This document shows positions 1,627-41,719 of a DNA stretch of 64,000 nucleotides, piece by piece (position 1 is the stretch's first letter; each line of letters starts with the position of its first letter). The stretch is from Gemmatimonadota bacterium. GTDB taxonomy: Bacteria; Gemmatimonadota; Gemmatimonadetes; Palauibacterales; KS3-K002. The notes under the pieces were generated by a model that made no database searches, was not told the DNA's origin, and saw nothing but the letters and a program-made list of their open reading frames with translations. Location: positions 14,412 through 78,411 of the forward strand of contig JBDHJU010000011.1 in the NCBI GenBank assembly GCA_039586755.1, read 5' to 3'. A program made the translations under genes and the position numbers.

Positions 1627-1997
1627 TCATTTTCTCCTTCTTCGTTCTCCACGATCATCTCACGCGTCGCGGAGTCCGACCAGACCGGAATCATCGACGA
1701 GGCGCCAGTTGTGGGATTGACCATATATCGATACGACGCATGTTGACTAAACTGCTGTTCCATCCACTCCCAGCCCTCCCGGTAATACGAGCAGTCGTCG
1801 TTGAAGCAGACGTAGAGGAACTTCTCGGTCCACGTAGCGCCGTCCGGGACGATCCACTTCTTGAGACGCTGACCACAATGTGGACAGTCTCGGGAGATCT
1901 TGACCATCGGTATCCTCGATCGATTACTGGTTGCCGTGGGGATCCGTGCGCAGTCGATCACCTTGCCGGTATGGCTCGAAGAAACAACGCCTGACAT
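1623..1997 (-). CDS. Small Cys4 zinc-ribbon-like hypothetical protein (124 aa ORF; true start may be the internal Met giving ~94 aa)
   Basis: Contains CPHCGQ...CFNDDC, read as a C-x2-C ... C-x4-C zinc ribbon. The ORF sits between aprA and the YkgJ-like gene, and its stop overlaps the YkgJ start (ATGA). Confidence 0.45.
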   Translation of the reverse strand: MSGVVSSSHTGKVIDCARIPTATSNRSRIPMVKISRDCPHCGQRLKKWIVPDGATWTEKFLYVCFNDDCSYYREGWEWMEQQFSQHASYRYMVNPTTGASSMIPVWSDSATREMIVENEEGENE

Positions 1998-2080
1998 AGG
2001 ACAAGCCTGGGAGTGTGGAGCGGCCGGAACCTTCGAGCGTCGTGCCGTGACGCCCGAAGATCCCGGAGCTCGTGAACTAC

Positions 2081-3939: not shown

Positions 3940-3989
3940 TTTTCGTTGTCTCCTTCTTTTCGTCGTCCGAAGAGATCAAGTGTCGCCGA

Positions 3990-4457
3990 CTAGAGCGTTG
4001 GGACCTTGTCCATCTTGACCGGGCCGCGCTCCGTGTTGAGGCCCTGCGGCTCGCACATCAGCGTCGCGCTCTTCAGGTCATCGTCGCCTGTCGGATAGTG
4101 ATCGAACGGCTGAGCCTTACCTTCCTCGACGCCCCTGCGGATCGGGAACTTGAAGCGTTTCGGCTTGATGTCCTTACTGCGGAACTGCAGGGTCCACATG
4201 ATGTCCTCGCTGCTACGCATCGCCGTGACGCTCGCCCCCAGCGGGACGAAGTCCTGGTAACCGCGGACCTCGATAGCCTGCGTCGGGCAGATCTTCACGC
4301 AGCTGTAGCATTCCCAGCACATCTGCGGATCCTGGTTGAAGGCCTTCATGCTATCCTTGTTCAGGACCATGAGATCGTTCGGACAGATGTGCTGGCAGGC
4401 GGTCTTATCGAGCGCCTTGCAACCGTCACACTTGTCCACAATCACGTAACTCGGCAT
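3990..4457 (-). CDS. aprB: Adenylylsulfate reductase beta subunit AprB (2x[4Fe-4S] ferredoxin-like)
   Basis: MPSYVIVDKCDGCKALDKTACQHICPNDLMVLN...CWECYSCVKICPTQAIEVRGY. Strong AGGAGG RBS 7 nt upstream. Confidence 0.92.
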   Translation of the reverse strand: MPSYVIVDKCDGCKALDKTACQHICPNDLMVLNKDSMKAFNQDPQMCWECYSCVKICPTQAIEVRGYQDFVPLGASVTAMRSSEDIMWTLQFRSKDIKPKRFKFPIRRGVEEGKAQPFDHYPTGDDDLKSATLMCEPQGLNTERGPVKMDKVPTL

Positions 4458-4574
4458 CTCCGCGCCTCCTGGTTGAATTGTACGTACGCCTACATCTCTC
4501 CGGGGTGATCGCTAGCGAGTCGCCGAGGGGCTTCCGCGGGGGCGGGAAGCTGTATGTGACTGCTTAGGGTGGGG

Positions 4575-4635
4575 CTTGTGCGATTTTTTTCACGATTCTC
4601 GGCACTTACCGAGATTTTTGTCACGATTACAATCT
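4575..4635 (-). promoter_or_regulatory. AT-rich candidate operator/promoter element upstream of aprB. A 16-nt direct repeat flanks a 5-bp-arm palindrome.
   Basis: GATTTTTTTCACGATT (4583-4598) and GATTTTTGTCACGATT (4613-4628) match 15/16. Between them lies CTCGG-CACTTAC-CCGAG. An AT-rich island in a 65% GC background, ~130-170 nt upstream of the aprB start. Confidence 0.4.
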
Positions 4636-4772
4636 GGCAAGGTATTCCGCCCCGCGCAAGGAGGGCGAAGAAACATGATACCGTTGTGAGTTTTAGGCCG
4701 GAAACGACCCGCACGAAGCCTCTCTCGGGGCCTAGATCCGGGCCGGTGGGGGCGCTGCCTGGAGCAGGTCGC

Positions 4773-6965: not shown

Positions 6966-7459
6966 GGCTGGGGTTTGAGCTTGCGATCCTGGCCGATGAG
7001 ATCGGTGATCTGGTCGCGTGTGCGTCTCGCCAGCGCCGGATCGCGTCCATCGGTGAAGACGGCGATCGTGACGTCCTCACTTTGCAGCAGAGCTCCAAAG
7101 ATTACCTGCGAGCGCTCGGCCGATGACGCGTCGCACGCCAGTGCGCCGTTCCGAACTGCAGCTTGGACGACGGCGGCGTTGCGGTCATCCTCATCCGTGG
7201 CGGCGACGGCGAGGAACTTGCTACCCATGTGCTCTTCGCGGAACGAGTCCTGTACCCAGCGGACGCGGCCGGCCTCGATCAGCTGGGCGAGCTCGTCTGT
7301 AACCTCGGGTGATACCACGGTAACGACGGCCCCGGCATGCGTGAGGGTGATGACTTTGCGAGTCCCGACATTTCCGCCACCCACGACCAGGCAGTCCTTG
7401 TTCCGGACGTCGAGTCCTAGCGGCAGAAAGCGTAGCCTGTCCGAGGGGTCGCTGGTCAT
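6962..7459 (-). CDS. sirC: Precorrin-2 dehydrogenase / sirohydrochlorin ferrochelatase-like (SirC / CysG N-terminal domain-like) siroheme synthesis protein
   Basis: LPLGLDVRNKDCLVVGGGNVGTRKVITLTHAGAVVTVVSPEV...AVAATDEDDRNAAV is a Rossmann NAD-binding pattern typical of Met8/SirC. Overlaps the downstream fusion gene start by 4 nt. Confidence 0.7.
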   Translation of the reverse strand: MTSDPSDRLRFLPLGLDVRNKDCLVVGGGNVGTRKVITLTHAGAVVTVVSPEVTDELAQLIEAGRVRWVQDSFREEHMGSKFLAVAATDEDDRNAAVVQAAVRNGALACDASSAERSQVIFGALLQSEDVTIAVFTDGRDPALARRTRDQITDLIGQDRKLKPQP

Positions 7460-7488
7460 GTCCTCCGGGGCCTTCTTATAGTCTCGTT

Positions 7489-7941
7489 TCAGTGGCCGAC
7501 GCTCAATATACCGCTCGCCGCGAGTGTCAGGATGGCAGCCTCCAACAGGGCCATGACCACGTAGGGCGTATCTCGTTTCTTGATTAGCGTGGGGACGATT
7601 CCCAAGAAGCAGAAGATGGTCACTGCGGAAAGCACGGCGATCCCCAGAAAATTCAGATAGTCACCCTTTCCGATCACGGACAGCCAGGACCATCCGGATA
7701 TCGGGTGCTCATGGTGCAGGTGGTCGTGATTCGTCGCCTCCAGATAGTCGTGGACGTTCATCGTCCAGTACTCGGGGAGTTGTTCCACCGGAACGGCCGG
7801 CGCAACGATGCCGCTGGTGTAAAGGGCAAAGGTCACGAGTAGGAGGGCCAGCCCGAAGTACATGCCGGTCTGGAGGATCTTGGCGTAGAGGAGTTGTTCC
7901 TCGTCAGCGCCAGGGCAATCTACGTTGCCGTTCGTCTCCAT
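7489..7941 (-). CDS. Small polytopic membrane protein (DUF1634-like) of the kind commonly paired with TauE/SafE exporters
   Basis: 150 aa with ~3-4 hydrophobic segments, 15 nt downstream of the TauE gene on the same strand. Confidence 0.5.
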   Translation of the reverse strand: METNGNVDCPGADEEQLLYAKILQTGMYFGLALLLVTFALYTSGIVAPAVPVEQLPEYWTMNVHDYLEATNHDHLHHEHPISGWSWLSVIGKGDYLNFLGIAVLSAVTIFCFLGIVPTLIKKRDTPYVVMALLEAAILTLAASGILSVGH

Positions 7942-7956
7942 GTTTACACTCGCTCC

Positions 7957-8988
7957 CTAAACGATGAACGGGAGGCCGAGTCCCTTGGTGATCGCCTTGG
8001 CCCCGGCGAAGAGCAGCAGGGCGATGACGACCCAGCGAACGAACCCCGGCCTCGCGATCCGCAGGATTCGTACGCCGATAAACGACCCCAGCATTATGCC
8101 TACCAGTGACGGCACTACCATCATTGGGATTACGGCGCCCTTGTTAACATAGATCCAGGCCGCCGACGTGTCAGTGATTGACAAAAGGAATTTGCTGGTC
8201 GCCACACTGACCTTGAGCGGCGCTCCCATCACCAGGTTCAGAACCGGGATGTTGGCCCAACCGGCGCCCAGTCCGAACATCCCCGCCATCACGCCTATAA
8301 CAATGAACAGTAGCAAGCCGGGCACAGTACGGTGAACCTTCCAGTTGATCGTCTGACCCATGCTCGCCTCTGTGTACACGCCACAGATCCGCAACGCCGA
8401 AGAGACACGGTCTGGCTCAGCGACCTCCGGGAACACCGATTTCTTCGCTGCGATCATTATCGCGACAATCCCCAGGATGGTCGCTCCGAGGGCTGTCTGG
8501 ACAATATTCGTCGGTAGAGCGAGGCCGATCATCGCTCCGACGATCGCACAAGTCGAGGCGATCAGGGCCACAGGCATCGCCAGGCGCAGGCTGGCCAGGT
8601 TCATCTTCAGGAAGCCCGGCCCGGCGGCGAGCGCGCCGCTTAGCGCCACCAGAAGCCCACAGCCGCGAACGAAGTCGAGGTGGAAGGGAAAGAACCCACT
8701 CACGATCGGAACGAACAGAACGCCTCCGCCCACACCGCCCAGAGCCGCGAGGATGCCCATGACGAACGTGAGCACGAACAGGATGAGCGGCCACACCCAC
8801 CATGCTGTCGTGCTGCTGGAGACCGCTGGCGCCGTCAGATCGCTCGCCTGGATGACGGTTGGGTAGAGCAGCAGGAAAAGGCAGAGAAGTGCGCCCGTAA
8901 GATACGGCATGAATCGTCGCGTTCCTAAGATGTTCACCTGGCCTCGACTCGGGGTTCCACGCGACATCGTGATAATCGCACGATTCAA
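7957..8988 (-). CDS. TauE/SafE (DUF81) family sulfite/anion exporter
   Basis: 343 aa polytopic protein with the duplicated GxGGG motif LAALGGVGGGVLFVPIVSGFF and a second-half repeat. Confidence 0.75.
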   Translation of the reverse strand: MNRAIITMSRGTPSRGQVNILGTRRFMPYLTGALLCLFLLLYPTVIQASDLTAPAVSSSTTAWWVWPLILFVLTFVMGILAALGGVGGGVLFVPIVSGFFPFHLDFVRGCGLLVALSGALAAGPGFLKMNLASLRLAMPVALIASTCAIVGAMIGLALPTNIVQTALGATILGIVAIMIAAKKSVFPEVAEPDRVSSALRICGVYTEASMGQTINWKVHRTVPGLLLFIVIGVMAGMFGLGAGWANIPVLNLVMGAPLKVSVATSKFLLSITDTSAAWIYVNKGAVIPMMVVPSLVGIMLGSFIGVRILRIARPGFVRWVVIALLLFAGAKAITKGLGLPFIV

Positions 8989-9183
8989 CCTGATGCGAGA
9001 TATGCTCGGCGGCGCGCGGTGTCAAGCTGAGCGGAGTGTGGGCTGTCTCATCGCTGGAGAAAGGTCGAGCAATATGATATCTTGCGGTGGCCGCTTTTCT
9101 CGTGCGAGGCCTCGCGACGTATTGCGCCTCGCGAGTCCGAAGGCGCTCAGCATCCACGCGAGCCCACATGTGGGCCAGGAGTC

Positions 9184-9834
9184 ATGAGCACGACTGAAGA
9201 TCGGGAAGCGGCGTTTATAGGCAAGATAACCGCCGGCGCCACCCATGAGCTCCGCAACGTTCTGGCAATCGTAAAAGAATCTGCGGGCCTGATCGAAGAC
9301 ATCGTCAATTCCCCCGACAAACCTGGGACAGATAAAGCCGACAGGCTAATGCGGCCGATTGCGCGGATTCGGGACCAGGTCGAGCGCGGATCGGAGCTCC
9401 TCACGAGCCTGAATCGATTCGCCCACAGCATGGATCACGCAGAGGACGAGACCGACCTGAACGAGATGGCCGAGCTGCTCGCGTTCCTATGCCAGCGAGC
9501 GGCCAGAAGGGGGAGGCATCTGGTAGAAGCGCAGCCGGGGGACCAGGCCCTGACGGTAGTGGCCAACCTGCTTCGGCTGCAGATGGCTCTGCACGCAGCC
9601 GTCGAGTGCTGTCTTGAGCAGTTGCCCGAGCGTGGCAAGCTGACCCTCAAGGCGGTTCGGCACGGAGATCGACCGGCGCTCGAGTTCAATGGTGAGTCCG
9701 AGGGTGAGGCAGTTTCATTCGTGCCAAACGAGGCCGCAGCTTGGAGCCGGCTGGCGGCGGTCCTCGACGACCTGGATGCATCGGTGGAGAAAGCCGAAGC
9801 AGAGCAGGGTTTCCGGCTCGCCCTTTCGGGGTGA
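9184..9834 (+). CDS. HisKA-domain protein with a degenerate (G1/G2-box-less) HATPase-like C-terminal region. Likely a pseudo-kinase or phosphotransfer protein.
   Basis: TAGATHELRNVLAIVKES is an H-box. The downstream region (ANLLRLQMALHAAVECC ... EQGFRLALSG) resembles N/G2 boxes but lacks DxGxG and GxGLGL. The ATG at 9184 is preferred over the ORF-track start at 9082. Confidence 0.55.
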   Translation: MSTTEDREAAFIGKITAGATHELRNVLAIVKESAGLIEDIVNSPDKPGTDKADRLMRPIARIRDQVERGSELLTSLNRFAHSMDHAEDETDLNEMAELLAFLCQRAARRGRHLVEAQPGDQALTVVANLLRLQMALHAAVECCLEQLPERGKLTLKAVRHGDRPALEFNGESEGEAVSFVPNEAAAWSRLAAVLDDLDASVEKAEAEQGFRLALSG

Positions 9835-9858
9835 TGCGAGCTTGGCAGTGGGGAGGAT

Positions 9859-10785
9859 TTGATGAGCAAAATCAAGCTGCTCCTCGTCGATGACGAAGAA
9901 GCCTACGTAAAGACGCTGGCCGAGAGAATGGAGATGCGCGACGTCGGCAGTCGCGTGGCCTTGAGCGGCGAAGAGGCGCTGGAGATGCTCGAGGACGAGC
10001 CGCCCGACGTGATGGTTCTCGACCTCCGCATGCCGGGCATCGACGGGATGGAAGTGTTAGAGCGGGTCAAGCAGAAGCATCCCCACGTAGAAGTGATCAT
10101 TCTCACCGGGCACGGCTCGGACAGAGAGGAAAAGGAGGCGCGCAGGCTGGGGGCGTTCGAGTACCTGCAGAAGCCGGCGGATACGAGTCACCTCCTGAAT
10201 ACCGTTCGGGCGGCTTGGCGAAAGAGCTTGAAGGCCGCCGCCGAGTTCATCAAGGACTCGCAGGAAGAATTCGACAGGAGCATGGCTGCGGCAGCTTTCG
10301 CTGAGGCGGGCGCGCCGGAGATCGCCAGGGAGACGATGCAGGAGTCGACCCCGCGACCCGACGTGGACACCGATGAAGCCGGCGCCGCGGAGGCCGACGC
10401 CGCCACTCAGACGCTCAAGGTCCTGTTCGTTGATGACGAAGAGGACTTCGTGCGGACCATGGCCGAACGAATGGAGATGCGCGACGTGGGCAGCGAGGTG
10501 GCGCTGGATGGACAGCAGGCATTGGAGATGCTCGAGGACGAAGTACCGGACGTCATGGTTCTCGACCTGCGTATGCCGGGCATCGACGGCTTGGAGGTAT
10601 TGCGGCGCGTCAAGAGGACGTATCCAGAGATGGCAGTGATCATCATGACCGGCCATGGGTCGGAGGCGGACGAAGCAGAAGCTCGCCGCTTGGGGGCGTT
10701 TGATTACCTGACCAAGCCGGTCGACATCAATCAGCTCATGGATGTTATCCGCGAAGCGGGTCGCTCGCGTCGGAAAGCGGAGTAG
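9859..10785 (+). CDS. Tandem-receiver (REC-REC) response regulator with no output domain
   Basis: Two CheY-like domains: (1) LLLVDDEEAY...DVMVLDLRMPGIDG...ILTGHG...EYLQKP and (2) VLFVDDEEDF...DVMVLDLRMPGIDG...IMTGHG...DYLTKP. All phospho-acceptor residues are present. Confidence 0.85.
   Translation: MMSKIKLLLVDDEEAYVKTLAERMEMRDVGSRVALSGEEALEMLEDEPPDVMVLDLRMPGIDGMEVLERVKQKHPHVEVIILTGHGSDREEKEARRLGAFEYLQKPADTSHLLNTVRAAWRKSLKAAAEFIKDSQEEFDRSMAAAAFAEAGAPEIARETMQESTPRPDVDTDEAGAAEADAATQTLKVLFVDDEEDFVRTMAERMEMRDVGSEVALDGQQALEMLEDEVPDVMVLDLRMPGIDGLEVLRRVKRTYPEMAVIIMTGHGSEADEAEARRLGAFDYLTKPVDINQLMDVIREAGRSRRKAE
9862..10745 (+). repeat. Intragenic tandem duplication: the two REC-coding halves (~9862-10190 and ~10420-10745) are ~80% identical at DNA level
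   Basis: The DVMVLDLRMPGIDG-coding stretches are near-identical. Antisense spurious ORFs are also duplicated (9903..10106 and 10407..10646). Confidence 0.7.
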
Positions 10786-10809
10786 GGATGGGCGGTCGGG
10801 TTAACGAAG

Positions 10810-12573
10810 ATGATGGTGGAGACGGTAAGCCTGGTTGACGGAACGGGGGAAGATCAAGATCAACTGATCTCCCGACGGCGCTACAGGAAGATGATTCTCG
10901 TGGCGGTGCTTTCGGTATCGGCTGTAGCCGTCGCTCCGCTTCTCATCATGTCGAGTATTACCTACCACCAGTATCAGGAGGCGTTCCGAGCTGAGCTGAC
11001 CCGCCCCATGCTGCGGTTCGCCGTGGCCGGTAAGCAGGCGATCGAGTCCTACCTCTCGGAGCAGGTAGCGGCTCTCGCCATGGTGGCGCGCGAGACGTCG
11101 CTCAAGGAGCTTCGTGACCCGGGAAGGTTGAGCTCGTTGCTCACCAACATGAACCAGACCTTTGGCGGAGTGGTCGAGCTCAGCATGATCAACGAGGGGG
11201 GCGTGCAGGTCGCCTATGCCGGTCCGGGGGAGCCGCAGGCGGTCAGCTACGCGGACGATCGGTGGTTCCGAGAGGTCAGCGCCCGCGGCACGTACGTTAG
11301 CGACATGTTCCTGGGGCACCGAAACGACCCCCACATGGTTGTCGCGATCCAGCACGAAGACTCGGAAGGGAATCGGTACATCTTACGTGCGACGCTCGAT
11401 ACCGATCCATTCCACTGGCTAGTGCGCGCTCGTACGGCCCGCCGTCCGGAACTCAACCAGGTCTGTCGCAGATGCCATTCGCTGGGGGCCCAACAATTCA
11501 GCGACGCGTTCATCGTCAACCGCGAAGGTGTCCTGCAGAGTTCCTCGCGTCTTTATGGCGGCGTGTTGGAGCGCACCCCCTTACCGACTTTTCCGTACAG
11601 CAGTCAGGTGGAGCTTGTCGATGTAGTGGACGAGCAGGGAGAGCCGCTCATCGTATGTTACGCGCAGATCGATCGCTCGCCGTTTACGCTGGTGGTGTTG
11701 AGTCCTCGCATCGCTCTGCACGCGGGTTGGTTCCCGCTGCGCCGCGACCTGCTGGTATTTCCGGCGATCAGCGTCGCGCTGATTCTGGCAGTCGTCATCT
11801 GGGGTTCGATCTACGTGGTGAACCGCGTTCGCGAGGCGGATGCAAAGCGCGCGGCGCTCTACCACAAGATGGAGTACACCAACAAGATGGCCGCTATCGG
11901 GCGCCTGGGTGCCGGTGTGGCTCACGAGATCAACAACCCGCTGTCGATCATCACCCAGAACGCGGGACTGCTGAAGGATCTGATCACGCTGTCCGAGGAG
12001 TTACCCCCGAGGGATAAGCTGACCCATCTGGTGAATTCGGTTCTCAACGCCGCCGAGCGCTGTGGTGGGATTACCCACCGTCTCCTGGGTTTCGCCAGGC
12101 ACATGGAAGTGCAATGGGAGACTATCGATCTCGATGGGTTGCTCAGAGAAGTCCTGGAGTTCCTTGGGAAGGAAGCCAGCTACCGTGACATCCAGATCGA
12201 ATTCAAATACTCCGGTACGCCGCCTCCCATCGTCAGCGACAGGGGGCAGTTGCAGCAAGTGTTCCTGAACATCGTCAACAATGCTTTCGCCGCAGTCGAT
12301 GATGGTGGGCAGATCGAGATTGGGATTGAACAGCTTGGGGACGACGCCGTTGCGGTGACCATCGCCGACGATGGCGTAGGCATTCCTGAGGAACAGCTGG
12401 GGCAGATCTTCGATCCGTTCTTTACGACGAAGAAAGGTGCGGGGACGGGCCTGGGTCTCTCCATTACATATGGGATAGTGCAAAAACTGGGTGGGCAGAT
12501 CAGCGTCGAGAGCAAGGTGGGTGAAGGTACCTGCTTCACAGTCACACTGCCGATACGTCGGGCGCACGCCTAG
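10810..12573 (+). CDS. Sensor histidine kinase with a periplasmic sensing domain (Cache-like)
   Basis: N-terminal TM (MILVAVLSVSAVAVAPLLIM), ~270-aa extracytoplasmic region, second TM, H-box AGVAHEINNPLSII, N-box NIVNNAFAAV, G1 DDGVGIP, G2 GTGLGLSITYGIV. Confidence 0.85.
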   Translation: MMVETVSLVDGTGEDQDQLISRRRYRKMILVAVLSVSAVAVAPLLIMSSITYHQYQEAFRAELTRPMLRFAVAGKQAIESYLSEQVAALAMVARETSLKELRDPGRLSSLLTNMNQTFGGVVELSMINEGGVQVAYAGPGEPQAVSYADDRWFREVSARGTYVSDMFLGHRNDPHMVVAIQHEDSEGNRYILRATLDTDPFHWLVRARTARRPELNQVCRRCHSLGAQQFSDAFIVNREGVLQSSSRLYGGVLERTPLPTFPYSSQVELVDVVDEQGEPLIVCYAQIDRSPFTLVVLSPRIALHAGWFPLRRDLLVFPAISVALILAVVIWGSIYVVNRVREADAKRAALYHKMEYTNKMAAIGRLGAGVAHEINNPLSIITQNAGLLKDLITLSEELPPRDKLTHLVNSVLNAAERCGGITHRLLGFARHMEVQWETIDLDGLLREVLEFLGKEASYRDIQIEFKYSGTPPPIVSDRGQLQQVFLNIVNNAFAAVDDGGQIEIGIEQLGDDAVAVTIADDGVGIPEEQLGQIFDPFFTTKKGAGTGLGLSITYGIVQKLGGQISVESKVGEGTCFTVTLPIRRAHA

Positions 12574-12582
12574 GAGCGGCAC

Positions 12583-12969
12583 ATGGACCCCTTACGTGTT
12601 CTGATCGTCGACGACGAAGCCGAGCTGGTCACCGCCCTGGAGGAGCGGCTCAACCTGCGGGGGTTCGAGGCCAGGGGTGTGACGACCGGCGCCGATGCGC
12701 TCGCGCTACTCGCCGAGCTGCCGTTCGATGTGGTGCTACTGGACTTGAAGATGCCGGGGCTCGGCGGGTTGGAAGTCATCAGGAGGATCAAGCAAGAGCA
12801 ACCGGGGCTAAAGGTAATCCTGTTAACAGGTTGGGGCTCCGAGGAAGACGCCGAAAAAGGGAAGGCACTCGGGGCCTACGACTACCTGATGAAGCCCGTG
12901 AAGATCAGCGACCTGGTGCGGGTCCTGCTCTCCGCCTGTGACCGGGAGGAGGAGGAAAGAGAAGAATGA
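12583..12969 (+). CDS. Single-domain CheY-like response regulator
   Basis: VLIVDDEAE...VVLLDLKMPG...LLTGWG...YLMKP. Confidence 0.85.
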   Translation: MDPLRVLIVDDEAELVTALEERLNLRGFEARGVTTGADALALLAELPFDVVLLDLKMPGLGGLEVIRRIKQEQPGLKVILLTGWGSEEDAEKGKALGAYDYLMKPVKISDLVRVLLSACDREEEEREE

Positions 12970-13397
12970 ACGAGAGCACCGTGCTGCTCGTCGATGACGA
13001 GGAGGAGTTCGTCGAGGTCTTGGCGGAACGGTTGGAGACGCGCGGTCTCACGGTGGACACCGCGGGGGACGGCGAGCTGGCGTTGGAGAAGGCGGGGAAG
13101 CGGTCGTTCGATGCCATCGTCCTCGATATGGCCATGCCGGGCATGGACGGCATCGAAACTCTCAAGGGGCTGCTCCGGATCAACCCGGACCTGCAGGTCA
13201 TTCTACTGACCGGTCGCGCGACCCTGGGCCAGGCGGTGGAGGCGATGAAGCTGGGGGCGTTGGATTTTCTGGAGAAGCCGGTAGACATCGAAACGCTGGT
13301 GGCGAAGATCGAGGAGGCGGCGACGAAGAAATCGTCACTCAAAGAGAAACGCATCGCGGACAAACTGTCCGACATCATGCGAAAGAAGGGCTGGTGA
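12966..13397 (+). CDS. Single-domain CheY-like response regulator (second copy)
   Basis: LLVDDEEEF...AIVLDMAMPGMDG...LLTGRA...FLEKP. Overlaps the previous gene by 4 nt. Confidence 0.85.
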   Translation: MNESTVLLVDDEEEFVEVLAERLETRGLTVDTAGDGELALEKAGKRSFDAIVLDMAMPGMDGIETLKGLLRINPDLQVILLTGRATLGQAVEAMKLGALDFLEKPVDIETLVAKIEEAATKKSSLKEKRIADKLSDIMRKKGW

Positions 13398-33704: not shown

Positions 33705-35156
33705 TCAACTTTCCGCCGGTCCGACCCGCTGAGCGGAAGTGAACTCGGCGACGGCGGCCTCAGGGGTCTTTACGATCAGGAAGTAGGCGAACAGCAAGCT
33801 GGGCCACAGGTGGAGTGCTAGTCGGTGCCTCGACGTGCCCATGTGCCAGGCGAGATCGTACGGCGTCACGACGTATACAAACAGATAGGCCGCGAGGACC
33901 AGGCTCAGCGTGACCAGCATGGTGACCACACTCTCTCGCTCTATACTCTTTCTTCGCCAGCCAACGGCCAGCAGGTAGAGCGCCAGCACGAGCGGCGCCG
34001 CCACCAGCCAGCCGCTGAGGTTCAGAAAGCGCTCTCCGAACGACACGAGCACGAACCAGATTCGGCCGGGATCCGTCAACCGTTCGATGATGTCGGCGAG
34101 GCGCAGTGAAGCGAGTAAATCGTTGGGGGGCGCGACCGTCCACCTGAACACCACGATCAGAGTCAGCAACGGGGCCAGCCCCAGTAACAAGGTGCCCTGA
34201 CTGCGAAGGGCCCGGCCCCAACCTCGCAGGTGTGCGACGACCAGCAGTCGGCCAACCAGCAGAGCGAGTACGAAGATCAGACCCTCATTCTTTGTCCAGG
34301 CGGCAAGGCCCGCGGTCAGTCCTGCCAGGGCGATGAACCCTCCGCCTCCGTCCTCGACCGTGTCGGCGAGGGCCAGCACAACGAAGGTCGCCAGTATGAA
34401 GAATGCCAAAGGGACGTCGGCGTACTGATTCGCCGCCTGGTAGACCAGCGTGTTACAAGAGAGCACTAAGATGCCGGCCAGCAGGCCCTGGCCAGAGCTC
34501 CGCAACGAGGTGAGGGCCCCCAGCAGCAGGAAGGCCGTGGCGAGGGCGAAGAGCAGGCCCAGCAGAATCGGCACGATCTGCGGCTCGGACCCGATGAAGC
34601 TCCAGGCGCGTGCGGTTGCCCCCGGTACCAGTAGAGGATAGTCGGCGTGGGTCCAGGTCCCCAGCAGATTGGAAAAGGCATCCCTCCAATGGTCAGCTCC
34701 ACGGAACAGGAATCGGGCACGCAGGTTCCAGATGCTTGCGGCGTCCCAGCCACCGTGTGGGTAGGTTGCCGAACGGTAACCGAAGCTGAGGGCTGCTGCG
34801 ATGAGCGAGACGGCGAACCCCGGAACCAGCAACCAGGAGACGAACGGTGACGCGCTCGGGCGATCGACGGGCCTGCGGCTAGCGGTCAGCGCTCCGCTCC
34901 GCGCCCGGCGCAGGGCGAAGCCGATCAGCAGCGCCAGGCCCGCGACCTCCATCACGAAATACACTTTCGCGGAGCCGAGTCCGACCAGCCCGACAAAGAA
35001 ACCCGCTGAAGACAGACCCAGCCCCAGACCGACCCCCAGCGCCAGCATTGTTGGCATTTCTGTCATCGACACACGCGCCCGCGGCCAGAACGCGAAGAGA
35101 AACAGAGCGCCTCCGATGACGGAGAGGATAATTGCGAGGAGCAGCTCCGAAGTCAT
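33705..35156 (-). CDS. Large polytopic integral membrane protein (possible GT-C-type glycosyltransferase or DUF2029-like); function unknown
   Basis: 483 aa, >10 hydrophobic segments, hydrophilic loop YRSATYPHGGWDAASIWNLRARFLF. Confidence 0.35.
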   Translation of the reverse strand: MTSELLLAIILSVIGGALFLFAFWPRARVSMTEMPTMLALGVGLGLGLSSAGFFVGLVGLGSAKVYFVMEVAGLALLIGFALRRARSGALTASRRPVDRPSASPFVSWLLVPGFAVSLIAAALSFGYRSATYPHGGWDAASIWNLRARFLFRGADHWRDAFSNLLGTWTHADYPLLVPGATARAWSFIGSEPQIVPILLGLLFALATAFLLLGALTSLRSSGQGLLAGILVLSCNTLVYQAANQYADVPLAFFILATFVVLALADTVEDGGGGFIALAGLTAGLAAWTKNEGLIFVLALLVGRLLVVAHLRGWGRALRSQGTLLLGLAPLLTLIVVFRWTVAPPNDLLASLRLADIIERLTDPGRIWFVLVSFGERFLNLSGWLVAAPLVLALYLLAVGWRRKSIERESVVTMLVTLSLVLAAYLFVYVVTPYDLAWHMGTSRHRLALHLWPSLLFAYFLIVKTPEAAVAEFTSAQRVGPAES

Positions 35157-35713
35157 CGCTCCTCTCGTTCGAGCACTAGGAGACCGTCACCCAGATCGCG
35201 CCGCACGATCAGTCCCTCGGGGTACTTCCTGTCGAAACCCGGCTCACCGGTCGAGTCGGCGGGGTAGTTGCCGACTACGATCGGGAGATCGGTGTCTCTG
35301 AGGACGATGAGCGGCGCCAGCGAGTACTGGGTGAGGAAATAGTCCCGCATCGCCTCCGCGCTGGTGAACGAGCCGCCGCTCAAGCCGTCGCTGGCGTAGC
35401 CCACGATTCCGCGTGGCGGCAGATGCTCCCGCAATCGCCGCAACCGCTCGTCTTGCTCGCCTGTCCGCTGATCGCCGGCCGGGGCCGCGAACCGCGAGTC
35501 GCGATGTAGCTCGACGGTTTGGTGGAGCGCTTCCACGCTTCCGGCCAGCGCCAGGAAGACGGTAGTTGCCAAGGCGGCTCGGGCCAGCAGAGGTCGGTGG
35601 GTTCGCATACCCGCCAAGATACCGGTCATGCCTCGTTTCAGCCACGAAAGGGGGCGCGCCATGGAACCCGGAACCGGGGCGCGGGCGTTGACTTCGGGCA
35701 GGCCAGGCTGCAT
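35153..35713 (-). CDS. Hypothetical protein with an N-terminal TM/signal anchor. True start probably at an internal Met around 35608-35662.
   Basis: MRTHRPLLARAALATTVFLALAGS... Overlaps the downstream membrane-protein gene by 4 nt. Confidence 0.35.
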   Translation of the reverse strand: MQPGLPEVNARAPVPGSMARPLSWLKRGMTGILAGMRTHRPLLARAALATTVFLALAGSVEALHQTVELHRDSRFAAPAGDQRTGEQDERLRRLREHLPPRGIVGYASDGLSGGSFTSAEAMRDYFLTQYSLAPLIVLRDTDLPIVVGNYPADSTGEPGFDRKYPEGLIVRRDLGDGLLVLEREER

Positions 35714-35750
35714 GCTCAGCCAGTTGTGGCCAATTCGCGGAGGGATTCCA

Positions 35751-36758
35751 ATGCTAGCTCGGAGTTTGCCATGGAAGCGGCGCGCCGTTCAGCCGGCGCG
35801 GAGGTTGGCTCGGTGGCGCTGCCTCGGCCTGCTTGCGGTCCTCCCCGTCCTCGTCAGCGTCCCGCAGGACGGCTTCGGCCAGTACGAGAATATCGTCCTG
35901 CCCGTCGACACGATCGAGTACCTGTTCCGCTACGAGGAGTTCCGGATAGCGCAAATGAGGGACACGCGCTTCGAGGGGGACAGGACGCAGGTCGTCGTGC
36001 TGGCGTTTCCCGGCTACATGCCGCTACGCATCAAATGGGCGGCGGCTCCCAGGGGCGCCGACTCGTTCAACAACAAGCCCCGTTTCGAGATAGGGGTCTA
36101 CGAGCTGCAGAAGCTGTTCTTGGATGAGGAGGACTACGTTGTTCCTCCGACCGTGCTCCGCAGCATGACGTTGGATGAGTATCCTCGGTCGGATGCCGTG
36201 ATCACGACCTTCCGAGGCATCGATGCTGTGCTTGTTCTCATGCAGTACTGGCTGAGCCAGGTCACCGACGAAGACGTCTACGACGAGGACAGAATCGAGG
36301 ACGATTCGCTGTACGCCCGGCACCTGGCCGACATGAACATCCTGACCTATCTGGTCAGGCACGCGGACGCCAACCCGGGCAACATGCTGATCTCGACGGC
36401 CGGTAACGCCAGGGTCTTCGCCGTGGATAACGGCGTCTCGTTCGGCGACATCAGCGATCGGCCCGACGACTGGCGGAAGATGCGCACCGAGCGTCTGCCG
36501 CAGGGCACGGTGGAGAGGCTGCGGGGCATTAGCGAGGAAGATCTGCACCAGACGCTGGGCGTGTTGGCCCAGTTCGAGGTCCGAGGCGGCCGACTGGTGC
36601 AGGTCGAGCCCACCGAGAACCTGGACCCGGGGAACGGCGTGCGTCGCAAGGACGATGTCGTTCAGTTGGGGCTGACCAGACGTGAGATCGGGAGAGTCTT
36701 TGGACGCCTGGAGGATCTGCTGAAGGACATAGACGAAGGGAAGTACGATATTTTCTGA
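35751..36758 (+). CDS. Secreted protein with atypical protein-kinase-like (PKL / APH-ChoK-like) catalytic core, paralog 1
   Basis: GGAGGG RBS. Signal peptide MLARSLPWKRR...LLAVLPVLVSVPQDGFG. Candidate beta3 Lys (PLRIKWAAAP), alphaC Glu (EIGVYELQKLF), catalytic loop LVRHADANPGNMLIS (HxDxxxxN) and Mg-binding VFAVDNGVSFGD (DxG). No TM other than the signal peptide. Confidence 0.55.
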   Translation: MLARSLPWKRRAVQPARRLARWRCLGLLAVLPVLVSVPQDGFGQYENIVLPVDTIEYLFRYEEFRIAQMRDTRFEGDRTQVVVLAFPGYMPLRIKWAAAPRGADSFNNKPRFEIGVYELQKLFLDEEDYVVPPTVLRSMTLDEYPRSDAVITTFRGIDAVLVLMQYWLSQVTDEDVYDEDRIEDDSLYARHLADMNILTYLVRHADANPGNMLISTAGNARVFAVDNGVSFGDISDRPDDWRKMRTERLPQGTVERLRGISEEDLHQTLGVLAQFEVRGGRLVQVEPTENLDPGNGVRRKDDVVQLGLTRREIGRVFGRLEDLLKDIDEGKYDIF

Positions 36759-37760
36759 GCAGGGTATGGAGCCCGCAGGGATCGCAGTGTTGTATCGGGT
36801 CGCACCGGGGAGGCGGCAGCTGGGCGCACGGAACGGTCTGCTGTTGTCACTTTGCGTCCTGGCTGTCCTGGGTCGTCCGCTCGACGTCTTCGGCCAGTAC
36901 GAGAACTTCATTCTGCAGGTCGACACGCTCGAGATGCTATTGCGTGACCGTGAATTTTGGATCGCGCAATTCGCCGACAACCGTATCGTTGGAGACCGGA
37001 CACAGCGCGCGGTCCTGGTGTTTGAAGATTTTCCGCCCATAAACGTCAAGTGGGCGGCGGCGCCCAGGGGCGCCGACTCGTTCAACAACCGCCCGCGCTT
37101 CGAGATGGCGGTCTACGAGCTGCAGAAGCTGTTCCTGGACGTAGAGGACTACGTCGTGCCGCCGACGGTGGTCCGTGCGATGCCGCTGGACGAGTACCCG
37201 CGGAAGAACGCCGTGCAGACGACGTTTCGCGGCATAGACGTCGTCTTGGTTCTCTTGCAGTACTGGCTGAGACAGGTCACCGACGAAGACGTCTACGACA
37301 GGGACCGCATAAGGGAAGATTCGCTGTACGCCCGGCACCTGGCCGACATGAACATCCTGACGTATCTGGTCAGGCACGCGGACGCCAACCCGGGGAACAT
37401 GCTGATCTCGACGGCCGGCAATGCCAGGGTCTTCGCGGTGGATAACGGCGTCTCGTTCGGCGACATCAGCGATCGGCCCGACGCCTGGCGGAAGATGCGC
37501 ACCGAGCGTCTGCCGCAGGGCACGGTGGAGAGGCTGCGAGGCATTAGCGAGGAAGATCTGCTCCAGGCGCTGGGCGTTTTGGCTCAGTTCGAGGTGAGAG
37601 GTGATCAACTGGTCCAGGTAGAGCCGACCGAGAACCTGGACCCGGGGAACGGTGTGCGTCGCAAGGACGATGTGGTTCAGTTGGGGCTGACGACCCGTGA
37701 GATCGGGAGAGTCTTTGGACGCCTGCAGGATCTGCTGGAGGATATAGACGAGGGGAAGTA
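36290..37760 (+). repeat. Tandem gene duplication: the 3' ~460 nt of the two kinase-like genes (approx. 36290-36758 and 37305-37773) are >90% identical by eye. The 5' halves are ~75-80% identical.
   Basis: Long identical runs, e.g. gattcgctgtacgcccggcacctggccgacatgaacatcctgac and ggcgtctcgttcggcgacatcagcgatcggcccgacg, occur in both copies. Confidence 0.7.
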
Positions 37761-37773
37761 CGAAATCTTTTGA
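36766..37773 (+). CDS. Secreted PKL-fold kinase-like protein, tandem paralog 2
   Basis: Same motifs (NVKWAAAP, EMAVYELQKLF, LVRHADANPGNMLIS, VFAVDNGVSFGD). N-terminal hydrophobic leader LLLSLCVLAVLG. Confidence 0.55.
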   Translation: MEPAGIAVLYRVAPGRRQLGARNGLLLSLCVLAVLGRPLDVFGQYENFILQVDTLEMLLRDREFWIAQFADNRIVGDRTQRAVLVFEDFPPINVKWAAAPRGADSFNNRPRFEMAVYELQKLFLDVEDYVVPPTVVRAMPLDEYPRKNAVQTTFRGIDVVLVLLQYWLRQVTDEDVYDRDRIREDSLYARHLADMNILTYLVRHADANPGNMLISTAGNARVFAVDNGVSFGDISDRPDAWRKMRTERLPQGTVERLRGISEEDLLQALGVLAQFEVRGDQLVQVEPTENLDPGNGVRRKDDVVQLGLTTREIGRVFGRLQDLLEDIDEGKYEIF

Positions 37774-37784
37774 GTGGGAGACGT

Positions 37785-39095
37785 ATGAGGCGAAGGGGCT
37801 TGACGGCAATCGGCATCGCCGCGTTGGCCGTCCCGTTGCTGGCGGCCGCTGGGTCGGCGGTCATTCTCGATTGCGGGCCGGCGCGGTCCGCTCCCCAGGA
37901 GGAAGCCGGGCGGTCCAAGATCCGTGTCGACGGCGAGTACGGCCTCTGGGTGCGGGAGATCGGTGACTCGTTGCAGATGCGCTGGTTTACACGGGAACAC
38001 GGTGTGGGGTACCTGGAAGTGGTCGTCGACGGCGGAGCGGTCTACGGGGTCGAGACCGAGCCCAGCACGGCCCACGCCGCGTCGTTTCCTAAGCCGGCCG
38101 CACCCGAGCTGACGCTGCGCTACGGTGGTCGCGGGGATCCGCAGGACGCGCACGAGACGGTCATCTACTTCGACCTGCCGCAACGCCCGATCGAGACAGA
38201 GTTCGAGGGCGTCGACACGCTCTTCGTCGTCGGTGATGTCCACGGTCAGTACGACACGCTCACCGCGCTGTTTCGCAACGCCGGCCTCATCGACGGCGAC
38301 GATCGCTGGACCGGCGGCCACAAATGGATCGTGCTGCTCGGCGACCTGGTCGATCGCGGGCCCGATGTCCACAAGGTCTTGTGGTTTCTGTACGAGCTGG
38401 AGCGCGACGCGACGCGACAGGGCGGCCGCGTCCAGGTCCTGTTGGGCAATCACGAGATCATGGCGATGAGCGACGACCCCCGGTACGTGTCGGCGAAAGA
38501 GAGGCTGATCGCCCAGAATCACGGCGTCGCATACTGGCAGCTGTTCGACCCGCGAAGCTCGATTCTCGGGAAGTGGCTTGCATCGAAACCGGCGCTGATC
38601 AGAATCGACAGGGTGGTACTAGCGCACGGTGGTGTCGGTCCCGAGTACATGGCCTACTCGATCCCCGAGTTCGACGACTCGCTGGGGCTGTTCATGAGCG
38701 AGGAGTGGTTCTACCGCATGGCCGACAGCACAGCTGCTTACACCCCACTGGACTCGGTGACGCTCTTCCGTCGCATCGACTTCTTCTTCGACGAAAACAG
38801 CGTCTTCTGGTATCGGGGCTACATGCATACCGATACCCTCTATACCGATAGCCTCGCGTCAGTACTCCAGCAGGTTCTCGAGCGGCACGACAGCGACCTC
38901 CACGTGGTCGGCCACACGGCGGTCGATTCGATCCAGACAATGTACGATGGATCTTTGGTCGCTGTGGACCTGAAGGAAGCGGCAACGGAGATGCTCCTCC
39001 TGGTACGCAGTCCCGAGAGTTACGAGCGGTATCGCTATACTTTGTCGGGGCCGCCGCAGCCGCTCGAGATCCCCGTCGCCGCCGGCGGCGGGTAG
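37785..39095 (+). CDS. Secreted PPP-family metallophosphoesterase (Ser/Thr-type phosphoprotein phosphatase, ApaH/Shelph-like)
   Basis: Signal peptide MRRRGLTAIGIAALAVPLLAAAGS. Motifs GDVHGQ, GDLVDRG, GNHE in canonical order and spacing. Starts 11 nt after the paralog-2 stop with a GGGAG RBS. Confidence 0.75.
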   Translation: MRRRGLTAIGIAALAVPLLAAAGSAVILDCGPARSAPQEEAGRSKIRVDGEYGLWVREIGDSLQMRWFTREHGVGYLEVVVDGGAVYGVETEPSTAHAASFPKPAAPELTLRYGGRGDPQDAHETVIYFDLPQRPIETEFEGVDTLFVVGDVHGQYDTLTALFRNAGLIDGDDRWTGGHKWIVLLGDLVDRGPDVHKVLWFLYELERDATRQGGRVQVLLGNHEIMAMSDDPRYVSAKERLIAQNHGVAYWQLFDPRSSILGKWLASKPALIRIDRVVLAHGGVGPEYMAYSIPEFDDSLGLFMSEEWFYRMADSTAAYTPLDSVTLFRRIDFFFDENSVFWYRGYMHTDTLYTDSLASVLQQVLERHDSDLHVVGHTAVDSIQTMYDGSLVAVDLKEAATEMLLLVRSPESYERYRYTLSGPPQPLEIPVAAGGG

Positions 39096-39245
39096 CTCTT
39101 CCACCAGACCCACCGGACTCACGTTGGTCGAGGTATAGGCGCAGCCGAACGAACCACGAAACCGCCCATGGCGTCGGGTCGTAGAGGGCCCTAAGGTTCA
39201 CACCCGGGAGCCCCACCCATCTCAGTGCCTTTCGGTTGAGGTGAT

Positions 39246-41417
39246 ATGTACCCTTCTGCGGTGGGGCGCGTTCTTCTACTCCTGTCACTGGCGAGCGGGG
39301 CGATCACCCCGGCACAGACCCAGGAGCCGCTTCGTCCCCTGCGCACCGATGATCCGCCGGTGATCGATGGCGACCTGGCAGACCCGGTGTGGCAGGAGGC
39401 CCCCCAGCTTTCCGAGTTCATGACGTGGGCGCCGGACTACGGCAAAGAGATGCTCGGCGCGACAACGGTATACATGGCTCACGATGCGTCGAACCTCTAC
39501 TTCGCCTTTCGCTCCTTCGACGCCGAGCCCGAGAAGATCAAGACGTCGATCACCAGCCGGGACAACATATGGCGGGAAGATTGGGTCGCCATCAACCTCG
39601 ACTCGTTCAACGATCAGCAATCGCTCTACGCGCTTTACATCAATCCGCACGGCATCCAGGCGGACAGCCGCTATGCCGCAGGCCACGAGGACCGCAGCTT
39701 CGATCTGGTCTGGTACAGTGCCGGCCGAGTGGACGAGGCCGGGTACACCGTCGAGGTGCAGATACCGCTCAAGAGCATCCGCTACGCCGAGGGAGACTCG
39801 GTCAGCATGGGGGTCATCTTCGAGCGCCACATCAGCCGCCGCTCGGAGTATGGCAGTTGCCCGCCACTCGATCCGAATCAGCAGGAGTGGCTCACTCAGA
39901 TGGCGCCGATGGTCTTCCACGACCTCGAGCGCTCGAAGCTGTTGGAAGTGATTCCGGCCGCGACTTACGCGTACAGCGAGGCGCTGGAGGAGGGCGGGCT
40001 GGCCACTGACGAGCGGCAGGGCGAGCTCAGCCTGACCGCCAAATACGGCGTCACCTCGGACCTGATCTTGGACGGTACCTACAATCCCGACTTCAGCCAG
40101 GTCGAAGCCGATGCCGGGCAGGTAGATGTCAACCTGCGCTACCAACTCTACTTTCCCGAGAAGCGGCCGTTCTTTCTCGAGGCGCGCGAGAACTTCACCG
40201 TCGCCGCCACCGCATCATCGGAGAGGGATCCCGTTCAGTCGATCGTCTACACCAGGACGATCGTCGATCCCGTCGCCGGGTTCAGGCTGTCGGGCAAGCT
40301 CGGTGCCAAGAACACCGTGGCCTCGATCTACGCGGCTGACCAGCTGCCGGAACCCGAGCCTGCGTCGGGCGCCGGTTACGCCCACTTCCCCATACTGCGG
40401 TACAAGCGGACGCTAAACGAGGACAGCTACGTCGGGGGTATCATCGCCGGCCGTGAACTGCGGCATCAATACAACCGTTTGGCAGGAGTCGACGGTCAGC
40501 TGCGTGTCAGCGATTCCAGCATGCTCGGGTTTCACGGCCTCTTCTCTTGGGCCCGGCAGAGTCTCGCGACCCTGGCGGTAGAGGGACGGTCCCTCAGTGC
40601 ACAGTACTCGCACGGGACCCGCGACCTCGACTACGGCCTGGCCGTGAACGACGTCTCAGAGGATTTCCGTGCCGAGATGGGTTACGTGATCCGTACGGGG
40701 ATACTCCAGTTCAGTGGCCTGCTCAAACCGAAGATCTACCCGAACTCGAACGTCCTGCGACGGATCGACATCGAGCTTTTCTCGGCTCAGACCGAGGACA
40801 GGTTCAGCGGGCTATGGGAGACGTTCAATCACGTCTCGATGCTGAACCGCCTTTGGGGAAGCCTGACCCTCAAGCTGAAATACTCGTATTCGACTGAGAT
40901 CTTCCTCGGTCAGCGATTCCGGACCGGTGGGTTCCACGTATTCGGCGGCGGCCAGTTTACCCGGCAGCTCTATTTGGGAGTCCTCTACAGGAACGTCGGG
41001 TCGATCTTCTACTCGGAAGACCCGTATCAGGGTCGCAGCAACGTGTTGCGGGCCGACCTCGTCTATCAGCCGTCGGACAAACTGCGTTCCGAGCTGAGCT
41101 TCACTTACAGTGACTTCTATCGGGAGTCGGACGGACAGAAGATCTATAACTACCCGATCGTTTGGGGAAAACTGACTTACCAGTTCAACAAGTATCTCTT
41201 CCTGCGCGGGATCCTCGAGTACAACGACTTCCGGGATGAGATGCTCACCGACCTCTTGGTTTCCTTTACCTACATTCCGGGCACCGTGATCCACATCGGC
41301 TATGGCGCTCTCTTGGACAAGATCGAATGGAGGAACGGCGAATACGTGGAGGGTGACAGGTTCCGCCAGACCCGGAGGCGATTCTTCTTCAAGGCGTCGT
41401 ATCTCTGGCGGATCTAG
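39246..41417 (+). CDS. DUF5916 / CBM9-like domain outer-membrane-associated protein (723 aa)
   Basis: Signal peptide. PPVIDGDLADPVWQEAPQLSEFMTWAPDYGKE...YFAFRSFD (CBM9-like N-domain). Long beta-rich C-terminal region. Confidence 0.55.
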   Translation: MYPSAVGRVLLLLSLASGAITPAQTQEPLRPLRTDDPPVIDGDLADPVWQEAPQLSEFMTWAPDYGKEMLGATTVYMAHDASNLYFAFRSFDAEPEKIKTSITSRDNIWREDWVAINLDSFNDQQSLYALYINPHGIQADSRYAAGHEDRSFDLVWYSAGRVDEAGYTVEVQIPLKSIRYAEGDSVSMGVIFERHISRRSEYGSCPPLDPNQQEWLTQMAPMVFHDLERSKLLEVIPAATYAYSEALEEGGLATDERQGELSLTAKYGVTSDLILDGTYNPDFSQVEADAGQVDVNLRYQLYFPEKRPFFLEARENFTVAATASSERDPVQSIVYTRTIVDPVAGFRLSGKLGAKNTVASIYAADQLPEPEPASGAGYAHFPILRYKRTLNEDSYVGGIIAGRELRHQYNRLAGVDGQLRVSDSSMLGFHGLFSWARQSLATLAVEGRSLSAQYSHGTRDLDYGLAVNDVSEDFRAEMGYVIRTGILQFSGLLKPKIYPNSNVLRRIDIELFSAQTEDRFSGLWETFNHVSMLNRLWGSLTLKLKYSYSTEIFLGQRFRTGGFHVFGGGQFTRQLYLGVLYRNVGSIFYSEDPYQGRSNVLRADLVYQPSDKLRSELSFTYSDFYRESDGQKIYNYPIVWGKLTYQFNKYLFLRGILEYNDFRDEMLTDLLVSFTYIPGTVIHIGYGALLDKIEWRNGEYVEGDRFRQTRRRFFFKASYLWRI

Positions 41418-41719
41418 CCGCCAACCCTGGCCTCCGATGGACTGTCCAACTGTGGCGAAGGGCCGGGTGAGGGCCTGGCTGTGGCGGCCAGGGCGTTGCT
41501 TGACCCACCGAACCAGGTGTCCGATTATGGGACTGGCCGATCCCACAGGCAGACACCCGGCGGCAGCTCCGGGGCCCGGATATCCTGGAATCTGTTGGGC
41601 TTCAGGCGTGCCGGGACGGTGCGGGCCTTGGCACGGATCTTCCCCCTACGAATCCGCACGAGGGTTAGATCCGTATGAGAGACTGAAGGTATGGGTTTCA
41701 CCTCACAGGGGTGACTTAA

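Follow-up and report, generated by a model that had tools for sequence, protein, structure and literature searches.

The 64-kb window analysed here is a stretch of a Gemmatimonadota contig (JBDHJU010000011.1). ORF (open reading frame) analysis of its nt 35751–39095 revealed three tightly spaced genes on the plus strand, designated K1, K2 and PH, which code for two kinase-like paralogs and a phosphatase, all predicted to be exported (Table 1). K1 most likely starts at the ATG at nt 35751, ahead of which a Shine-Dalgarno-like GGAGGG is found, and a comparable GGGAGA precedes the ATG of PH at nt 37785, which is favoured over a less likely upstream TTG (nt 37770). The stop codon of K1 (nt 36758) is separated by 7 nt from the ATG of K2 (nt 36766), and that of K2 (nt 37773) by 11 nt from the ATG of PH. 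No convincing terminator was found in the gaps between the three genes and, over the region scanned (nt 35100–41600), no convincing promoter, sigma-70 consensus or convincing terminator was detected; neither an Rfam family nor a tRNA gene was found in the 64-kb window. The G+C content at third codon positions of K1, K2 and PH (0.80–0.82) is similar to that of the adjacent genes, and the trio is called with identical gene starts in three NCBI assemblies of metagenome-assembled genomes (MAGs).

Table 1. Coordinates of the K1-K2-PH genes, their predicted parts and the divergent neighbours (nt of the window)
Feature	Position (nt)	Strand	Description or basis
K1	35751..36758 (longer ORF from 35628)	+	Kinase-like, 335 aa; ORF, Shine-Dalgarno-like sequence, Pfam, orthologs, motifs
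K1, predicted signal peptide	35751-35879	+	aa 1-43
K1, key residues	36033-36035 (K95); within 36357-36383 (H204, D206, N211); 36426-36434 (D226-N-G)		Also E113
K2	36766..37773	+	Tandem paralog of K1, 335 aa; ORF; all catalytic residues kept
K2, predicted signal peptide	36766-36894	+	aa 1-43
PH	37785..39095	+	Shelph-type PPP metallophosphatase, predicted exported, 436 aa
PH, domains			Signal peptide, ~aa 1-25; FN3-like beta-sandwich, aa 50-128; catalytic domain, ~aa 140-420
Divergent intergenic region	35609..35750	.	From the likely start of U186 to K1; presumed promoter region of K1-K2-PH
Divergent pair, U186 and GT-C	33705..35713	-	Clade-specific neighbour: U186 and GT-C/PMT-like glycosyltransferase
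U186	35153-35713	-	Small exported or anchored protein, 150-186 aa, no family match
GT-C	33705-35156	-	GT-C/PMT-like membrane glycosyltransferase, 483 aa; weak Pfam PMT, NCBIfam LA_3751/LA_3752

Both paralogs carry the motifs KWAAAP (aa 95–100), YELQKLF, RHADANPGN (aa 203–211) and VDNG (aa 225–228), which the initial annotation had read as the β3-type Lys, the αC-type Glu, the HxDxxxxN catalytic loop and the DxG metal-binding motif of a kinase-like active site. In an alignment of 40 homologs, E113, H204, D206, G210, N211 and the triplet D226-N227-G228 were found to be invariant and K95 is kept in at least 90% of the sequences, in accordance with three of the four assignments. The Glu assignment has to be corrected, since E118 of YELQKLF varies (E, R, A, Q or H) and the invariant Glu of the same helix is E113, within the PRFE motif. 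Judged from these residues, the active site of both paralogs looks fit for phosphotransfer.

The kinase-like family had also been described as not a named one, a statement that stands only in part, as both proteins marginally pass the gathering threshold of the Pfam family PI3_PI4_kinase (PF00454; 28.5 bits for K1 and 30.0 bits for K2 against a threshold of 27.1) with a match covering aa 162–250 only. Many of the kinase homologs miss this cut-off, and the matches of K1 and K2 to ABC1, OspG and Fam20C were all below threshold. A sequence relationship with Fam20 (PF06702) was rejected, the scores being 12.2 and 11.9 bits (E 0.15–0.18) against a threshold of 26.8, as was a relationship with Fam20A, for which hhalign of the family profile to a verified catalytic fragment gave a probability of 2.4%. 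Searches of PDB sequences with K2 (phmmer) and with the family profile retrieved nothing significant, and the kinase class was therefore drawn from structure prediction and from a targeted hhalign comparison with PI4KIIα, a segment of which was checked beforehand against PDB chain 4hnd_A. The family profile aligned with this segment with an E-value of 1.3e-5 and 34% identity over 61 columns, pairing the family motif IRHxDxNxGNxLI with IRNTDRGNDNWLI and VDNGVAF with IDNGLAF, and matching a D-x-WR...LP segment as well. The aligned letters are LTYLVRHADANPGNMLIS versus LDYIIRNTDRGNDNWLIK, VFAVDNGVSFG versus VAAIDNGLAFP, and D-A-WR..RLPQG versus D-S-WR..WLPQA, with D206, N211 and D226 in register with NTDRGNDN and IDNG of PI4KIIα. 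In a weak alignment with Vps34, D206 corresponds to the DRH Asp, N211 to the catalytic-loop Asn and D226 to the DFG Asp.

The AlphaFold2 model computed from the 40-sequence alignment (pLDDT 84.9, pTM 0.82) shows a predicted bilobal kinase fold having the β3 Lys and the αC Glu, with a Fam20-like three-dimensional architecture, so that the kinase-like fold first proposed is supported by the prediction. Foldseek returned PI4KIIα as the top match of the model (E 4e-7), and Hydra Fam20 was matched with a TM-score of 0.51. Type II PI 4-kinases are defined as cytosolic, membrane-anchored lipid kinases that act on phosphatidylinositol and bear a Cys-rich palmitoylation motif, and K1 and K2 fall outside this definition, their mature forms having no Cys and their N-termini being predicted signal peptides. 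On sequence and modelling grounds, K1 and K2 are divergent members of the PI3/PI4-kinase superfamily, nearest to type II PI 4-kinases by sequence and of Fam20/PI4KII-like predicted architecture. The family is small: clustering at 90% leaves 826 proteins, and at 50% identity it accounts for 673 clusters among 1.84 billion representatives. The source names shown for its members are all "hypothetical protein". Its hosts are nearly all Gemmatimonadota MAGs, with some Marinimicrobia and other bins of the FCB (Fibrobacteres-Chlorobi-Bacteroidetes) group.

The third gene of the trio codes for an enzyme of the PPP (phosphoprotein phosphatase) type. Counting from the ATG at nt 37785, the motifs GDVHG (aa 150–154), GDLVDRG (aa 186–192), GNHE (aa 221–224) and HGG (aa 281–283) were found, plus a GHT motif, and the metal ligands and motifs of PPP enzymes are invariant in 20 homologs. 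PH matches Pfam Metallophos (E 6e-14) and the cold-active protein-tyrosine phosphatase of Shewanella (E 2e-38). The Shewanella-like (Shelph) clade of PPP enzymes was defined by Andreeva and Kutuzov in 2004 (PMC535813), and PH falls within it: Shewanella PPI is its closest characterised relative, and an insert separates GNHE from H(A/G)G. Bacterial-type PPPs have an (I/L/V)D(S/T)G motif (PMC535813), at the position of which PH reads VAVDLKEA and the Shewanella enzyme AVDSSIK; in PH the Asp is kept and the S/T-G is not. PH is, by its sequence features, an intact PPP enzyme of the Shelph clade.

Signal peptides were judged by sequence features; for the kinases, 108 full-length homologs were considered and the h-region was taken as an 11-residue stretch near the N-terminus with a mean Kyte-Doolittle value of at least 2.0. 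Such a strongly hydrophobic h-region occurs in 94% of the homologs and a net-positive n-region preceding the hydrophobic stretch in 96%. A conserved Gln (Q44) follows the predicted cleavage site; position −1, directly ahead of it, holds Ala or Gly in 95 of 101 homologs, and position −3 is occupied by A, L, V or G. The kinase N-terminus is thus predicted to be a canonical Sec signal processed by signal peptidase I, with cleavage between G43 and Q44 in both K1 and K2. A hydrophobic N-terminal signal sequence was also recognised in 37 of 40 PH homologs, some of which bear a lipobox (e.g., LAGC in L053), a proper form of which is missing in the PH of the window.

K1 and K2 are 80% identical in both protein and nucleotide sequence, and K1 is 85–89% identical to the single-copy orthologs in other MAGs. 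The closest relatives of the locus (L010, accession CP070812.1, and L008, L009 and L011) have one kinase gene in the same synteny as the window, with genes for a methyl-accepting chemotaxis protein, a Peripla_BP protein and GT-C upstream and for HlyD, ABC and a sigma-54 response regulator downstream, which indicates that the duplication is recent. From these comparisons K1 appears to be the conserved ortholog copy and K2 the faster-diverging duplicate. Most of the divergence of K2 lies in the signal peptide and N-lobe (aa 1–118): along the first ≈120 residues (nt 36766–37120 versus nt 35751–36105) the identity with K1 is 37–73%, against 90–100% in the C-lobe. This pattern suggests either neofunctionalisation of the N-lobe or a heteromeric K1-K2 pair. 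Tandem kinase duplicates were found in three other loci among the 80 species-representative loci whose genomic context was analysed.

The presence of PH could be evaluated in 74 of these 80 loci (6 contigs being too short) and that of an upstream transporter gene in 65. PH lies directly downstream of the kinase gene and on the same strand in 36 of the 74 loci and close by in 6 more. In addition, six distinct single-chain fusions of the two proteins were found, five in the order K-PH (P0121, P0125, P0390, P0391 and P0393) and one in the order PH-K (P0392, locus L091, nt 8001–10208). The sequences of P0121, P0125 and P0392 were read and each has a single N-terminal signal peptide, while for P0390, P0391 and P0393 the fusion was deduced from their length, their query coverage and the presence of a Metallophos domain. 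P0392 comes from two independent samples and sits within an operon with genes for a nucleotide transporter (NTT), a response regulator (RR) and a histidine kinase (HK). Adjacency and fusion in both domain orders indicate that kinase and phosphatase are evolutionarily coupled. Two further proteins, P0412 (an HK-K fusion with truncated N-terminus) and P0413 (a chimera of K with an unrelated tail), were set aside as too uncertain.

Most of what the initial annotation had proposed on the trio finds support in these data. The 11-nt spacing between the kinase pair and PH is confirmed by the coordinates, GDxHG, GDxVDRG and GNHE are all present in PH, Metallophos was indeed matched, and the predicted signal peptides on all three proteins are borne out by the N-termini of their homologs. 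Co-transcription is probable in view of the 7- and 11-nt gaps, of gene adjacency in other species, which the neighbourhood survey found to recur, and of the natural K-PH fusions. The kinase-phosphatase trio as such has to be qualified: the pairing, although conserved, falls short of being universal, and the kinases in tandem are a lineage-specific duplication. On each of the points on which the proposal could have failed, namely fold, residue conservation, signal peptides and co-transcription, the results were in its favour. The kinase/phosphatase locus is real and not a product of chance, because its motifs show little or no variation across 40 homologs, the PF00454 match is above cut-off and the Metallophos match has an E-value of 6e-14.

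A recurrent genetic context was found upstream of the kinase gene. In 37 of the 65 evaluable loci the kinase gene is preceded by genes for a TLC(NTT)-HEAT-cNMP_binding transporter (≈1000 aa), a receiver-only RR (REC; 160 aa) and an HK (HisKA/HATPase; 270–314 aa), in this order, and may be followed by PH. These genes often share overlapping stop/start codons, and the soluble RR and HK have no transmembrane segments. Examples of the five-gene operon are L003 (nt 3477–10249), L005 (nt 3510–10260), L007 (nt 405–7107) and L091 (nt 3545–10208), with ≈33 further loci, and the source annotations name the transporter an ATP:ADP antiporter or an Npt1/Npt2 family member. One TLC-K fusion (P0146), joined through the former signal segment, was also detected. 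Fusions of NTT, HEAT and cyclic nucleotide-binding domains (NTT-HEAT-cNBD) occur across many bacterial groups, and their function was unknown in 2017 (Major, Embley and Williams, PMC5381601); in the literature after 2017 we found nothing newer on NTT-HEAT function. The window does not have the five-gene operon, a GT-C gene lying upstream instead, and none of the best 120 of 495 transporter matches came from the contigs of those close relatives whose chromosomes are complete (CP070812.1 among them). Other clusters recurring near the kinase genes were discarded, being either shadow ORFs on the antisense strand or a matter of lineage synteny, as with SmpB and TyrRS in Marinimicrobia. Elsewhere in the window (nt 9859–13397, plus strand), genes for a double-receiver protein, a 587-aa HK and two single-receiver proteins gave tblastn matches to the operon RR and HK at 34–40% identity; this cluster seems to be a phosphorelay or chemotaxis-like locus unrelated to the operon.

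The Marinimicrobia kinase copies (L042, L043, L059, L060, L067, L076, L083 and L087) have neither phosphatase nor NTT and are found among housekeeping genes such as those for SmpB and TyrRS, with a PF01663 phosphodiesterase gene 2–3 kb off. L043 is labelled Thaumarchaeota; its kinase match to K2 equals that of L042 in identity and length and the PF01663 neighbour is common to both, suggesting that it may be a mis-binned Marinimicrobia contig.

The divergent pair formed by U186 and the GT-C/PMT-like gene adjoins the K-PH genes in L001, L008–L012, L015 and L016 only, where it persists even when kinase identity has dropped to 56%. In L001 the homolog of U186 has a length of 152 aa, which points to an internal Met as the start of U186. 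A functional tie of this pair to the kinase genes is only a lead, and a GT-C gene next to a kinase gene is reminiscent, by analogy, of POMT/POMK logic. On the other side, 150 nt 3' of PH, a 723-aa protein with CBM9_1 and DUF5916 domains is encoded (nt 39246–41417, plus strand). DUF5916 genes or their remnants lie by the K-PH genes in three other, differently organised loci (L091, nt 1072–3369; L055, nt ~3776–4243; L008, nt 8445–8618), and in L001 and L010 a methyltransferase gene takes the place downstream of PH. Recurring in only ~4 loci, the DUF5916/CBM9 gene is not conserved and was rejected as a part of the set.

Taken as a whole, these data lead us to propose a periplasmic, ATP-dependent kinase/phosphatase cycle acting on a shared envelope substrate and supplied with ATP by an NTT-type transporter, a reading to which we give a little better than even credence. 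K1 and K2 would be Sec-exported, catalytically competent phosphotransferases acting in the periplasm or the cell envelope, and together with the co-transcribed, exported PH they would share one extracytoplasmic substrate, whose phosphorylation state would be set by the reversible cycle. ATP is the most likely phosphate donor, as we infer from the NTT-HEAT-cNMP transporter being co-operonic in most relatives; this transporter would swap cytoplasmic ATP for periplasmic ADP under the control of cyclic nucleotides (cNMP) and of the phosphorelay. In the lineage of the window, where the transporter gene is not adjacent, it would be supplied in trans. Fold, conserved catalytic residues, export signals, genetic coupling and the frequent kinase-transporter operon are the in silico observations on which this reading builds. 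As for the substrate, Ser/Thr/Tyr residues of an envelope or periplasmic protein are our preferred class, held at slightly less than even confidence within this model and by analogy with co-operonic Ser/Thr kinase-phosphatase pairs and in view of the PPP-type partner; an envelope glycan or a lipid head group is nearly as likely. A broader claim, possible but doubtful in our judgement, is that Gemmatimonadota and, more sparsely, other FCB-group diderms carry out true periplasmic ATP-dependent phosphorylation, in which an NTT antiporter gated by cNMP/HEAT domains and a two-component system would fuel the kinase and the Shelph enzyme would erase the marks. The window would then be a trimmed version of the system with a duplicated kinase.

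Several points weigh against the proposed periplasmic cycle. The periplasm is regarded as ATP-free and, to our knowledge, no NTT-HEAT protein has ever been shown to export ATP. Moreover, NTT-HEAT proteins are found in many bacterial groups and the kinase family is small, and therefore the transporter must have a role independent of the kinase. No TLC/NTT gene was found in the 64-kb window, nor an NTT/RR/HK set beside K1, and 32 of the 74 kinase loci (~40%) have no nearby phosphatase, the coupling being frequent but not obligatory. A search among conserved neighbours for candidate substrate genes returned only PH, NTT, RR and HK, K95 is replaced by Gln in a few kinase homologs, and the whole case is built on sequence analysis and predicted models.

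Other explanations were weighed against the same evidence. The relationship with PI4KII points to a lipid head group, and the Fam20B match and the GT-C neighbour to a glycan. One explanation is an envelope-building set instead of a regulatory cycle: acting on the periplasmic face, K1 and K2 would transfer phosphate to a lipid head group or a glycan, as do PI4KII, the xylosylkinase Fam20B or POMK, and PH would act on another position or on a later intermediate; in the clade of the window, the divergent GT-C/PMT-like glycosyltransferase would make the acceptor. We consider this rather unlikely, given that GT-C is confined to one clade while most kinase loci have signalling or transport neighbours, that PPP/Shelph enzymes are not known as lipid or glycan phosphatases, and that the neighbourhood holds no conserved genes for sugar nucleotides or lipid carriers. 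Scavenging of extracellular nucleotides or phosphate, with NTT importing nucleotides, PH hydrolysing periplasmic nucleotides or dinucleoside polyphosphates and the kinase-like protein binding or trimming nucleotides instead of modifying a macromolecule, finds support in the ApaH-like features of PH and in the PF01663 and PF04185 genes near some loci; we rate it as improbable.

Still lower we place the two remaining explanations. A secreted effector or toxin set would act inside other cells, where ATP is at hand, as do H. pylori CtkA and the Legionella effector kinases, but Sec signals reach the periplasm only, no secretion-system genes adjoin the three genes, no defence or effector family was matched, and in free-living environmental MAGs these genes keep a stable chromosomal synteny with genes for regulation and transport, which is at odds with such a role; we hold it to be highly improbable. 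A PADLOC search for an anti-phage defence role gave no match either. It is likewise very hard to believe that these proteins are inactive pseudokinases or that they stay in the cytoplasm, the hydrophobic stretch at the N-terminus being no export signal. The absence of K95 in a few homologs would fit inactivity, but the catalytic residues are invariant, the signal regions share a canonical, conserved layout with A/G at −1, and exactly one signal peptide is present in the fusions P0121, P0125 and P0392.

The component folds of the proposed kinase/phosphatase cycle are already known and extracytoplasmic atypical kinases are a known kind, and the chance is substantial that the complete system represents a new category, in which ATP-dependent phosphorylation takes place in the periplasm and has an ATP supply dedicated to it. 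We know of no dedicated periplasmic kinase/phosphatase signalling system in bacteria. In the literature we found no description of an exported bacterial PI4KII/Fam20-like kinase family, of such a kinase paired with or fused to a Shelph phosphatase, or of its operonic link to NTT-HEAT-cNBD transporters. The problem of energy supply could be answered, in most relatives, by the co-operonic ATP/ADP-translocase homolog. If the periplasmic cycle is true, extracytoplasmic ATP-dependent phosphorylation would be established for bacteria and a first function would be given to the widespread, uncharacterised NTT-HEAT-cNBD transporters. The kinases would then be bacterial relatives intermediate in structure between type II PI 4-kinases and the secretory kinases of the Fam20 type, and the system would be the bacterial equivalent of the kinase system in the secretory pathway of eukaryotes, which combines Fam20 with lumenal ATP import. 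Even the minimal result, a Shelph phosphatase partnered with an exported kinase for lipids, glycans or proteins, would be new biochemistry.

Among known systems, PI4KIIα and PI4KIIβ (PF00454) differ from K1 and K2 in that the latter are bacterial and predicted to be exported with a cleavable signal peptide. Their likeness is limited to ~60 residues and, unlike PI4KII, the bacterial kinase is paired with or fused to a PPP phosphatase. PI4KII is anchored to the membrane through a palmitoylated Cys-rich motif, an anchor that is impossible in K1 and K2 because the mature proteins have no Cys. With the Fam20 proteins (the xylosylkinase Fam20B, the Golgi casein kinase Fam20C and the pseudokinase Fam20A) no significant sequence relationship was found and, in contrast to Fam20A, K1 and K2 both keep all catalytic residues; the eukaryotic Fam20 kinases work in a lumen that imports ATP. 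CotH, CtkA, HipA and the actin-fragmin kinase, further atypical kinases of which some are exported, are much more distant from K1 and K2 than PI4KII and Fam20 are, and have neither a paired phosphatase nor a transporter linkage. Compared with Shewanella PPI and the Shelph clade, the PH of the window adds an N-terminal FN3-like domain and is genetically tied, and in relatives sometimes fused, to an exported kinase. The NTT-HEAT-cNBD fusions already described have the same TLC, HEAT and cNMP_binding architecture as the transporter upstream of the kinase in 37 of 65 loci, and were assigned neither a function nor a link to a kinase or phosphatase (PMC5381601). The bacterial pairs PrkC-PrpC and PknB-PstP resemble the locus of the window in having a kinase gene co-transcribed with that of an opposing phosphatase. 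Their catalytic domains are those of cytoplasmic Hanks-type kinases and PP2C phosphatases, whereas the kinases and the phosphatase of the window belong to other families and are predicted to be exported.

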